The notes under the pieces were generated by a model, which was not told the DNA's origin, did not search any database, and worked only from the letters and a program-made list of their open reading frames with translations. A stretch of 64,000 nucleotides of DNA from Bacillota bacterium. GTDB taxonomy: Bacteria; Bacillota; Clostridia; Christensenellales; CAG-138. Each line of letters begins with the position of its first letter. The first letter of the stretch is position 1. Shown in pieces: positions 6,687 through 44,694 of this stretch. The translations under genes and the position numbers were made by a program. The stretch is taken from contig JBCFAY010000016.1 of assembly GCA_038562375.1 (NCBI GenBank), positions 5,516-69,515 on the forward strand, given 5' to 3'.

Positions 6687-6912
6687 AAAAACCGGCTTTC
6701 GCCGGTTAATGTTTCGCAATAGGGGACTTCTCCTCTTTTGCGATTTTTATCGTGCATTCTTGTTCCCTGGTTCTTCGACCGTCGGCCCGAAAAGCGCTTC
6801 AATGTGTCAAATGTGTCATTTTTTGCACAGCATATATTGCTGCAAAAGAACGGATTGAAAGCCCGCGATAAAAAACAGCCCTGTTTACAACAAAAACCGG
6901 CTTTCGCCGGTT
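6687..6912. mobile_element. Structured repeat element, copy 1 (6708-6891), between exact 21 bp direct repeats of a terminator hairpin
   Basis: AAAAACCGGCTTTCGCCGGTT at 6687-6707 and 6892-6912; the interior aligns with 44350-44510. Confidence 0.7.
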
Positions 6913-11649: not shown

Positions 11650-11912
11650 TTTGCCGAATCGCTTGTCCCTTAAGGCGAACGCGAGATTTTAGCGCGGATG
11701 ACAATATTTATATACGTCGTTTTGAAGGCGATCGGATGTGCGCGCCTACATCCTTCCCGGACGAATACCCGAACCTGCCGTTCCGGTGCGGTGCAAAACA
11801 AAACATTATAGCGCAAGTTGGCGCGACAGGCTGCTCGCGAAGCAGCAACCCGAGCACCAACTTGCGCGGCGAACTTCGAAAAAACGGGGGCTTCCGCTTT
11901 TTCGACAAACTG
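11650..11912 (-). mobile_element. Structured repeat element, copy 2 (inverted orientation; left boundary approximate)
   Basis: Reverse complement begins CAGTTTGTCGAAAAAGCGGAAGCCCCCGTTTTTTCGAAGTTCGCCGCGCA versus CAGACTGTCGAAAAAGTGGATCCCTCCACTTTTTCGAAGCTCACCGTGCA at 44350. Confidence 0.65.
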
Positions 11913-42538: not shown

Positions 42539-44284
42539 ATGTCTGTTGCAATCAAGATCAACGGAAATGTCGTCCATGCGCAGGAAGGGAGCACCGTGCT
42601 CGACGCCGCGATGGCCGCGGGCATCCGCATCCCGACGCTGTGCAACCTCAAGGACATCAACAACATCGGCGCTTGCAGGATGTGCCTTGTCGAGGACGCA
42701 AAAACGAAGAGGCTTCAGGCGTCCTGCGTGCTTCCCGTCTCGGAAGGCATGGAGGTTATCACCAATTCGCCCCGCGTGCTCCAGGCGCGCAGGGCGGTGC
42801 TCGAATTGCTCCTTTCCGATCACGACCGCTCCTGCCTGACCTGCAAGCGCAATCAGAGCTGCGAGCTTCAGGCGCTCTGCGATGAGCTCGGCATCATCGA
42901 GATCGAGTTCGAAGGCGTGCGCAATATCAAGACCATCGACGAGTATTCCCCCAGCATCGTCCGCGACAACAACAAGTGCATCCTCTGCCGACGCTGCGTC
43001 GCCGCCTGCGACAATATCCAGCGCGTCTATGCGATCGGCATGCAGAACCGCGGATACCGCACTCAGATCGGCTCAAAGTTTGAAAAGAGCCTCAATGACA
43101 TCGCCTGCATCAACTGCGGCCAGTGCATCGCGGCTTGCCCGACCGCCGCCTTGACGGAGAAGGACTCGACAAGGGAGGTTTGGGATGCGCTCGGCGACCC
43201 GAACAAATTCGTCGTATTCCAGCCCGCCCCGGCCGTGCGCGTCGCCATCGGCGAGGAGTTCGGCCTTCCGGTCGGGACGCGCTGCACCGGCAAGCTTGCC
43301 GCCGCGATGCGCAGGCTCGGCGCGGACCGCGTGTTCGACGTGGATTTCGGCGCGGACCTGACGATCATGGAAGAGGGCACGGAGTTGCTCCAGCGCATCA
43401 AAAACGGCGGTGTGCTGCCCATGATCACCTCCTGCAGCCCCGGCTGGGTCAAGTTCTGCGAGCATTTCTATCCGGAGTTTCTGCCGAATCTTTCCACCTG
43501 CAAGAGCCCCAACCAGATGCAGGGCGCGGTCACGAAGACCTGTTTTGCACAGAGGAACGGACTTGATCCGAAGGATGTCTTCGTCGCCGCGGTGATGCCG
43601 TGCACTGCCAAGAAATTCGAGCGCACGCGGCCCGGCATGGGCAGGGACGGCTACAGCGATGTGGATGCGGTGCTGACGACCCGGGAGTTCGCGCGCATGG
43701 TCAAGCAGGCCTCGATCGATTTTGCGAATCTGCCGGATGAGGAATTCGACACCTTCTTCGGCGAATCCACCGGCGCGGCCGTGATATTCGGCGTAACGGG
43801 CGGGGTCATGGAGGCGGCGCTCCGCACGGTGGCCGATCAACTCGCCGGGCAGGATATGGAAAAGCTCGACTATACCGACGTGCGCGGCCTCGAGGGCATC
43901 AAGGAAGCCACGGTGTCCGTCGCGGGCATGGATATCCGTGTTGCGATCGCGCACGGCACCGCAAACGCCGCCCAGCTCCTCGATTGCATCAAGGCAGGCA
44001 AGGCGCAGTATCACTTTATCGAGGTCATGGGTTGCCCCGGCGGCTGCATCACCGGTGGCGGGCAGCCGATCGTGGACGCGCGCGCACGTTACGGGGTGGA
44101 TACGGGCAAAGCGCGCGCCAAGGCGATCTATGATGCCGACGCCGCGATGACGATCCGCAAGTCGCACAAGAACCCCGCGATCCTCAAGCTCTATGAGGAG
44201 TTCCTGGGCGAACCGAACAGCCACAAGGCGCATGAGCTGCTGCACACGACCTATCGCCCGAGGGACAAATACTCGAACGCGTAA
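42539..44284 (+). CDS. hydA: [FeFe] hydrogenase catalytic subunit, group A
   Basis: 2Fe-2S, His-ligated 4Fe-4S (HDRSCLTC), two 4Fe-4S motifs; H-cluster motifs TSCSPGW, MPCTAKKFE, EVMGCPGGC..GGGQP. Confidence 0.95.
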   Translation: MSVAIKINGNVVHAQEGSTVLDAAMAAGIRIPTLCNLKDINNIGACRMCLVEDAKTKRLQASCVLPVSEGMEVITNSPRVLQARRAVLELLLSDHDRSCLTCKRNQSCELQALCDELGIIEIEFEGVRNIKTIDEYSPSIVRDNNKCILCRRCVAACDNIQRVYAIGMQNRGYRTQIGSKFEKSLNDIACINCGQCIAACPTAALTEKDSTREVWDALGDPNKFVVFQPAPAVRVAIGEEFGLPVGTRCTGKLAAAMRRLGADRVFDVDFGADLTIMEEGTELLQRIKNGGVLPMITSCSPGWVKFCEHFYPEFLPNLSTCKSPNQMQGAVTKTCFAQRNGLDPKDVFVAAVMPCTAKKFERTRPGMGRDGYSDVDAVLTTREFARMVKQASIDFANLPDEEFDTFFGESTGAAVIFGVTGGVMEAALRTVADQLAGQDMEKLDYTDVRGLEGIKEATVSVAGMDIRVAIAHGTANAAQLLDCIKAGKAQYHFIEVMGCPGGCITGGGQPIVDARARYGVDTGKARAKAIYDADAAMTIRKSHKNPAILKLYEEFLGEPNSHKAHELLHTTYRPRDKYSNA

Positions 44285-44326
44285 CGCATCGGCCAATCCA
44301 TATTAAAAAGAGAAAGAATCGTACGC

Positions 44327-44588
44327 CCCCGTCCAAAAGACGGGGGCGGCAGACTGTCGAAAAAGTGGATCCCTCCACTTTTTCGAAGCTCACCGTGCAT
44401 TTTCGGTCCTCGGTTCTCGCAGTTGCTTCGAACTGTCGAACCGAAAAGCACTTCAAGGTGTCATTTTGCACCGCACATGTCGCTGCAAAATGACGGATTG
44501 AAAGCCTCTGGCCGCACAAGTAGATCGCACGTCGCTTTTTATGAGGGTTTATTGATAGGCTGGCATCCCCGTCCAAAAGACGGGGGCG
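44327..44588. mobile_element. Structured repeat element, copy 3 (44349-44566), between exact 22 bp direct repeats of a terminator-like hairpin
   Basis: CCCCGTCCAAAAGACGGGGGCG at 44327-44348 and 44567-44588; imperfect inverted ends CAGACTGTCGAAAAA / TTTATTGATAGGCTG. Confidence 0.75.
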
Positions 44589-44694
44589 TATTGTAAAACG
44601 CCTTATCGGCAAACTGAACAAGGCTTTTCCGGCAAAAGGAAAGCGCTCATCCCTTCCCTGTGCTCATGCGTTCGCAGGCGCGCACCTTCGGCGT

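Follow-up and report, generated by a model that had tools for sequence, protein, structure and literature searches.

The window, the whole 64,000-nucleotide stretch of DNA that was analyzed, contains an open reading frame (ORF) coding for an iron-only hydrogenase (hydA), beyond whose stop codon lie a hairpin, an insert of 218 bp, and the greater part of the same hairpin once more. The flanking repeats are formed by a 22-mer, CCCCGTCCAAAAGACGGGGGCG, of which two exact copies (44327-44348 and 44567-44588) stand 218 bp apart; this 22-mer spans seven of the ten pairs of the hairpin at 44324-44348 on its 5' arm together with the entire 3' arm. The preliminary description of this DNA had already proposed a 218-bp insert bracketed by an exact 22-bp duplication, and our repeat search bore this out. 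The features of the locus, and the two further copies of the insert in the window, are as follows:

44282-44284: TAA stop codon of hydA (upstream ORF, iron-only hydrogenase, Pfam Fe_hyd_lg_C)
44324-44348, plus strand: host hairpin 3' of hydA with a 10-bp stem, the upstream copy of the target
44327-44348, plus strand: first copy of the exact 22-bp direct repeat
44349-44566, plus strand: copy 1 of the predicted MITE, 218 bp, in the same orientation as hydA (153.8 bits)
44350-44369, plus strand: gene-proximal terminal repeat CAGACTGTCGAAAAAGTGGA, assigned by comparison with insertion sequence (IS) left ends
44357-44386, plus strand: hairpin 1, in which the inner part of the terminal repeat pairs with its own inverted copy, as seen from covariation
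44395-44451, plus strand: hairpin 2, with the inner stem GGTTC/GAACT (helices 2 and 3 of the covariation count)
44452-44502, plus strand: hairpin 3, with the outer stem TTCAAGG/GGATTGAA and the inner stem GTCATTTTGCA/TGCAAAATGAC (helices 4 to 7)
44503-44566, plus strand: A/T-rich, weakly conserved tail that terminates in the inverted terminal repeat
44548-44566, plus strand: inverted terminal repeat TTTATTGATAGGCTGGCAT, which on the opposite strand reads as the IS left end TGGYCAGRCTGTC
44567-44588, plus strand: second copy of the exact 22-bp direct repeat (duplicated host hairpin)
6708-6891, plus strand: copy 2 of the predicted MITE (6687-6912 with its duplications; 110.1 bits)
approximately 11700-11905, minus strand: copy 3, of the long form, whose hairpin 3 loop holds an additional module of two hairpins (47.6 bits; distal boundary approximate)

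The stem of hairpin 1, TCGAAAAAGTGGA/TCCACTTTTTCGA (44357-44369/44374-44386), is complementary at 13 of 13 positions, and the arms of the hairpin 3 stem lie at 44452-44473 and 44481-44502. Folded as RNA, copy 1 (44349-44566) reaches -80.7 kcal/mol, with a z score of -5.3 against 200 shuffles, so that the three stems of the preliminary description are present and form a stable fold. Seven ORFs of at least 20 aa overlap the region of copy 1, all of them short or antisense, and the longest (145 aa) runs antisense over the end of hydA. The preliminary description saw no credible ORF in the element, and the indels between copies favor a noncoding nature. Both homologs listed in that description proved real. 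Copy 2 carries its own exact 21-bp hairpin duplication (6687-6707 and 6892-6912), and the compensatory changes cited for stem 1 are found as described, with A-T or C-G at pair 4 and T-A, G.T, or C-G at pair 10. Beyond the second hairpin copy behind hydA, a further motif at 44601-44616, CCTTATCGGCAAACTG, resembles the distal end of other copies (tttatagataaactg in locus L039) and may be what remains of an earlier insertion.

Distribution of the element

In the 3.2-Mb source genome (G000; other genomes are designated by further G numbers and loci by L numbers), iterated nhmmer searches recovered about 25 copies sharing a core of about 150 nt, and a covariance model built from 14 copies agrees, which places the number at 21 to 25 and upholds the expectation that the element would be numerous genome-wide. 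The size of the element is roughly 185 to 220 bp. A first sample searched with the covariance model yielded it in 10 of 24 other genera and in none of 16 other families of the same order. A larger sample covered 120 other genomes of the family, of which 43 carry it; this corresponds to 22 of 50 genera when the source genome is included, and the counts in three of these genomes (G007, G060, and G070) are at least 26 each. In G019, copies lie at many contig ends (C74, C77, C103, C123, and C142; L033 to L037), with inverted pairs at both ends of C77; since the element thus breaks the G019 assembly, its copy number there is underestimated. We considered whether two copies might form a composite or autonomous version in G007 and G019 and regard this as unlikely, as the inverted pairs enclose ordinary-looking ORFs or sit at contig ends. 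No Rfam 15 family matches the window at the gathering score, and a search with five copies yielded no more than two hits, both at chance level (E = 0.3 and 0.61); a catalogued Rfam family, which the preliminary description had named as an outcome that would remove its novelty, is thus not what the element represents.

The loci of rplL, tsf, and prs bear on the mobility of the family. Of 13 such loci in five relatives that belong to other genera and themselves have the element, none carries it behind the gene, and all 13 consist of a stop codon, a short spacer, and a terminator. The sole above-chance match to the model at these loci (L170) lies about 1.3 kb from rplL. Behind tsf, the sequence TAATTTT is common to the source genome and G003, and the start of the element corresponds approximately to the start of the terminator in the relatives. 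Three sequencing runs that hold parts of the stretch yielded no same-species empty site in the form of a joint skipping the element: contigs of run X1, possibly the source sample, break inside the repeat, run X2 has a 181-nt contig identical to 44341-44521, and RNA run X3 covers only 43900-44024 in the hydA coding sequence.

Insertion sites and a probable IS1182-family partner

A scan of 20 genes lying upstream of copies revealed unrelated housekeeping functions, among them rplL (ribosomal protein L7/L12), tsf (EF-Ts), prs (phosphoribosylpyrophosphate synthetase), a glnS-like class I Glu/Gln tRNA synthetase, type III glutamine synthetase (GSIII), rnc (RNase III), YebC, HtrA, an SDR protein, and hydA itself. 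This lack of a functional link rules out a cis-regulatory RNA of a single pathway. In at least 38 of 50 callable flanks, the element and the upstream gene share one orientation, a lower bound because the open-frame test behind the count is crude and miscalls hydA, and the hairpin 1 end of the element always faces the upstream gene. Two arrangements recur. In the first, seen in at least 19 copies, the element begins 0 to 10 nt past the stop codon of a same-strand gene, and in the copies inspected a locus-specific terminator is found only on the distal side. In the second, a hairpin precedes the element by 0 to 10 nt (by 18 nt in a single copy) and is found again on the distal side; this arrangement is significant in 13 of 54 copies, which have a flanking repeat of 15 to 33 nt over a hairpin, with a score that none of 200 shuffles reached. 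The other 41 copies have no significant flanking direct repeat, and inspection by eye of those next to stop codons revealed no obvious short target duplications (2 to 8 nt). Some of the duplicated hairpins have since diverged while retaining their pairing (L067). By the same kind of visual reading, the hairpin-duplicating copies of G007 form a homogeneous young subfamily, and those adjacent to stop codons are more diverged.

The preliminary description had called for a transposase gene with matching ends, and an IS of the IS1182 family is indeed present in the source genome. Its transposase, on contig C37, scores 268.7 bits against NF033551 despite truncation at the contig end; the cutoff of that model is 270, and a full-length relative (L122), 82% identical to the C37 protein, scores 292 bits. 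Both proteins have the DUF772 and DDE_Tnp_1 domains. Further left ends of this IS at the ends of contigs C17, C23, and C28 bring the number of its copies to at least four and indicate that it, too, is multicopy and breaks the assembly; its right end is unassembled because of the contig break. The four left ends read GG(T/C)CAGGCTGTCCGGAAAG, and three of them directly follow a hairpin and T-run. Among 46 related public loci, the left end was located in 30 of the 33 examined as TGGY followed by CAGACTGTCCGAAAAGT(GG), almost always after a hairpin.

Comparison of these ends with the element ties the two together. The gene-proximal tip of copy 1, CAGACTGTCGAAAAAGTGGA, is identical at 18 of 20 positions to the left end of the IS1182-family element at L130 and at 13 of 20 to that of the coresident IS, and the matching tip sits exactly at the boundary of the duplicated hairpin. 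The right ends of well-kept copies, when reverse complemented, read TGGTCAGGCCATC (L064), TCAGGCTGTCAATAAAC (L067), and CCAGCCTATCAATAAAC (copy 1), with TGGTCAGGCC and TCAGGCTGTC as further renderings, and the distal tip is, as judged from these alignments, the same IS end in inverted orientation. Thus, both tips carry the IS terminal repeat, TGGY-CAGRCTGTC..., and the imperfect inverted repeats of the preliminary description, weak within copy 1 alone (11 of 15 positions), are upheld by the other copies and by the IS ends. In most copies, the outermost 5 to 7 nt of the gene-proximal end (CAGRCTG) are missing or degenerate, and the family alignment begins at TCG, the foot of hairpin 1; this suggests that many copies are possibly immobile or that this end is processed differently. 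The right end of full-length IS relatives has the form CCGAAAA-variable-loop-variable-TTTTCGG followed by ACAAAATG, with an inner stem that varies by compensatory change, and hairpin 1 is, by its sequence, such a structure, namely, a transposon end that pairs with an inverted copy of itself. Neither the IS relatives nor their flanks are detectably similar to the core of the element (hairpins 2 and 3).

Most full-length IS copies have a hairpin and T-run flanking the left end. Among 23 full-length relatives, the only repeat is the 4-nt TGGY, and hairpin duplication was found in none. We observed that 13 of these 23 copies (L121 to L163) have an opposite-strand tRNA gene (12 copies) or tmRNA gene (1 copy, L133) exactly one base past the right end, and that TGGY on both sides of the tRNA-adjacent copies is an apparent 4-bp duplication of the RCCA end of the tRNA. 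The parent IS group thus seems to insert precisely between the 3' end of a tRNA and its terminator, behaving like the first of the two arrangements above. Its polarity is also that of the short element, with the hairpin-bearing end toward the upstream gene (the tRNA in the case of the IS), so that the orientation bias of the latter needs no RNA function.

On the basis of these observations, we propose, with a probability of about 0.8, that the element is a nonautonomous MITE of approximately 185 to 220 bp that derives from, and is most likely mobilized in trans by, an IS1182-family DDE transposase and that inserts at the feet of hairpins. The terminator-targeting nonautonomous element of IS1182 type envisaged in the preliminary description is thereby substantiated by the 13 hairpin duplications among 54 copies and by the copies, at least 19 in number, that lie between stop codon and terminator. 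The IS of the source genome would be the probable provider of the transposase there. NF033551 has no match in four copy-rich genomes (G007, G060, G046, and G134), and a search with the G000 transposase as the query matched 7 of 120 genomes of the family, only 2 of which have the element; these absences come from draft assemblies, where repeats often drop out. The absence of the transposase from most copy-rich genomes counts against current mobilization in them. Two other candidate partners were rejected: the IS of G070 has ends different from those of the element, and the IS1182-like element of G003 has 34-bp repeats (ACTTCGGGCC...), with ends that are unlike those of the MITE. As a separate observation, positions 30241-30393 of contig C28 in the source genome hold an IS with an internal deletion, in which a 32-nt left end is fused to transposase codons that lie about 270 nt deeper inside; this copy could represent an intermediate toward a shorter derivative or an artifact of the assembly graph.

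A mechanism can be conceived by analogy with IS1272, a member of the IS1182 family that targets stem-loops. In the model outlined for it, a stem-loop is extruded and the transposon ends attack it at its feet, and the outcome (deletion or replacement, a second copy of the entire stem-loop, or duplication of the loop) depends on which feet are attacked (PMC5678879). For palindrome targeting within this family the same source refers to Siguier et al., and for TnSha1/TnSha2 to Furi et al. In an equivalent scheme for the MITE, which borrows the cruciform from the IS1272 model, the transposase would recognize a DNA hairpin or cruciform, in practice the rho-independent terminator behind a gene, and the element would be joined at the feet of this target. 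Strand transfers straddling the hairpin, followed by gap repair, would duplicate it entirely, as may have happened at copy 1, copy 2, and 11 other sites, and two transfers at the 5' foot would leave the element between the stop codon and a single terminator. Both arrangements could be accommodated by such an IS1272-type scheme, and the asymmetry of the target would account for the fixed orientation of the element.

Conservation of the three hairpins

Among 70 distinct copies, drawn from G000 and eight relatives (nine genomes in all), all 45 base pairs of the three hairpins show changes on both sides, including 13 of 13 in hairpin 1 (helix 1). Pairing holds in 93.7% of 3,009 cells, versus 75.7% when partners are shuffled and 37 to 47% when they are slid by one to three columns, in an alignment that had been fitted to the structure of the covariance model. 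A MAFFT alignment of 14 copies has compensatory changes in 18 of the 45 pairs. To compare the two strands, G.U was counted against A.C. The totals are 217 and 106 but include two positions that are fixed as G.U (in 47 and 46 of about 68 sequences), and without these they become 124 and 104. G.U exceeds A.C at 20 pairs, and the reverse holds at 16; in hairpin 1, the sign is reversed, with A.C at 26 and G.U at 10. The counts without the fixed positions point to a weak strand signal, with both strands folding about equally well. Ten young copies of G007 differ from their consensus at 0.044 per paired column versus 0.12 per unpaired column, a 2.7-fold difference in which poorly aligned loop columns inflate the unpaired rate and preinsertion variants also cloud the result; of the 34 pairs hit in these copies, 11 are broken and 8 are wobble pairs, with another 9 restored on one side and 6 altered on both.

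For the retention of the inner hairpins, we consider two explanations, both of them tentative. The better of the two, which we nevertheless regard as improbable at present, is that the hairpins are kept as DNA, i.e., as cruciforms or single-strand hairpins that a structure-reading transposase might use as binding sites or target mimics. The near balance of G.T and A.C mismatches means that either strand can fold, the right-end hairpin of the parent IS has an inner stem that likewise covaries, cruciforms are invoked by the IS1272 model as outlined in PMC5678879, and other small modules have landed within hairpin loops of the element. Against this, the interior hairpins are different in a sister family that shares the end, and nothing in the full-length IS corresponds to hairpins 2 and 3.

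Slightly less probable still is that the three-hairpin core is kept as RNA, as a cotranscribed 3' untranslated region (UTR) module that might, for example, block exonucleases or substitute for a terminator. Such a mobile RNA module would go beyond selfish DNA and would supplement, rather than replace, the MITE interpretation. The high pairing frequency and the two-sided changes at every pair can be read in its favor, although the alignment behind the pair counts had the model structure built into it. The same is true of the overall excess of G.U and the two fixed G.U positions, an excess that shrinks without those positions and is inverted in hairpin 1. The shared orientation with the upstream gene (at least 38 of 50 flanks) would suit a transcribed module but is explained by the target and recurs in the polarity of the parent IS; further, the associated genes have no common function. 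The lower divergence of paired columns in the young G007 copies is also consistent with RNA-level constraint, with the misalignment of loops working against it. Finally, the second family in the source genome, with the same end and another interior, suggests that hairpins 2 and 3 are seemingly unneeded for the ends as such. The preliminary description had taken the conserved fold to suggest function as RNA or single-stranded DNA (ssDNA); as stated, this is not supported and is at most a tentative reading, with a ratio of 124 to 104 once the fixed positions are left out. Hairpin 1 is simply a paired transposon end.

A broader formulation, in which the core is a selected portable structure carried on IS1182-type ends, be it a 3'-UTR RNA module or a set of DNA cruciforms, is similarly doubtful. 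If it were true, each insertion between gene and terminator would bring one and the same folded unit to genes that are unrelated and in many cases highly expressed, with the hairpin-duplicating insertions representing a young stage and the order stop codon, element, terminator representing a retained one. Movement of a palindromic element as ssDNA by a Y1 transposase (IS200/IS605 or RAYT), or by an IS110-type recombinase, with a merely coincidental likeness to IS1182 ends, would fit the subterminal hairpins and the 41 of 54 copies that have no flanking duplication, but it is highly improbable, given that Y1_Tnp (PF01797) is absent from G000, G007, G060, and G019 and matches only in G070, that the long duplications flanking 13 of 54 copies are not a product of Y1 transposition, and that the 18-of-20 match of the tip to IS1182-family ends is far beyond chance.

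Relationship to known elements and nested variants

The preliminary description regarded the element as its best candidate for an undescribed system, a view that has to be given up, as stem-loop targeting with duplication or replacement has already been modeled for IS1272 and the IS1182 family (PMC5678879). As outlined there, IS1272 and TnSha1/TnSha2 of staphylococci, whose transposases belong to the same NCBIfam DDE family, likewise target stem-loops behind genes, with outcomes that include loss or duplication of the stem-loop, and have ends that can themselves form a stem-loop (PMC5678879); they are autonomous and 1.9 kb long, and their new insertions replaced the hairpin. In contrast, the element described here is 0.2 kb long, gene-less, and found in uncultured Clostridia, with the hairpin duplicated in 13 of 54 copies, and its parent group leaves only a 4-nt repeat. 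Class C bacterial group II introns are retroelements that also insert just past intrinsic terminators in the direction of transcription. Unlike them, the element has no ribozyme, reverse transcriptase, or Rfam match, and it has flanking duplications and DDE-type terminal repeats. Structured bacterial MITEs such as Correia/CREE, ERIC, RUP, BOX, and SPRITE are cotranscribed with neighboring genes, have short target duplications of fixed length, and fold mainly via their long terminal repeats. The element resembles them in being small, intergenic, multicopy, and gene-less, in the stable stem-loops that its transcript would form, and in nesting; it differs in that its three local hairpins are maintained through covariation and its target is set by DNA shape. 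RUP, BOX, and SPRITE are named among the structured bacterial MITEs in PMC10969869, and the literature searched, which was of limited extent and included MITE papers, makes no mention of IS1182-derived MITEs in the parts covered. Identity with PATE or REP-RAYT elements is rejected on the absence of PF01797 from G000 and the presence of long duplications (13 of 54 copies).

The element makes up a new family of a kind that is already known; it is widespread within a single family of uncultured Clostridia and opens no new class of system. Its interest lies in a well-documented case of target choice by DNA shape that is tied to a coresident IS1182-family element, with about 25 copies in this genome and dozens in relatives. 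A single family can give rise to three footprints, namely, duplication of a whole hairpin, plain insertion at a hairpin foot, and the 4-nt repeat of the parent IS, and annotators expecting target duplications of fixed length would overlook the first two. As a folded segment of 200 nt in the 3' UTRs of rplL, tsf, prs, and hydA, the element could also affect termination or mRNA stability.

Several variants accompany the family. A second MITE-like family in the source genome, with about five or six copies (C22:42105-42520, C25:21090-21289, C4:61110-61333, C19:5874-6144, and C18:22135-22233), has the same terminal repeat and hairpin 1 (CAGCCTGTCGAAAAAGTACC...GGTACTTTTTCGA) joined to a different hairpin-rich interior. 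The long-form copies carry in the loop of hairpin 3 a module of about 65 to 85 nt with two hairpins (CCCGAATGGnACATTCGGG ... GTGCGG..CCGCAC), which is seen in the window at approximately 11712-11789 (minus strand), elsewhere in the source genome at C9:10852-10936 and C27:12619-12698, and in G007 at L042, L074, L076, L090, L069, and L082; it lies outside hairpin 3 in L069 and is inverted in L082. Possibly, this module is a very small mobile unit in its own right, one that inserts into hairpin loops. Two further inserts were observed: one of about 45 nt, itself a hairpin, within the hairpin 2 loop of one copy in the source genome (C6:44033-44229), and an additional module, about 80 nt long, that separates hairpins 2 and 3 at L038 and L080 of G007.
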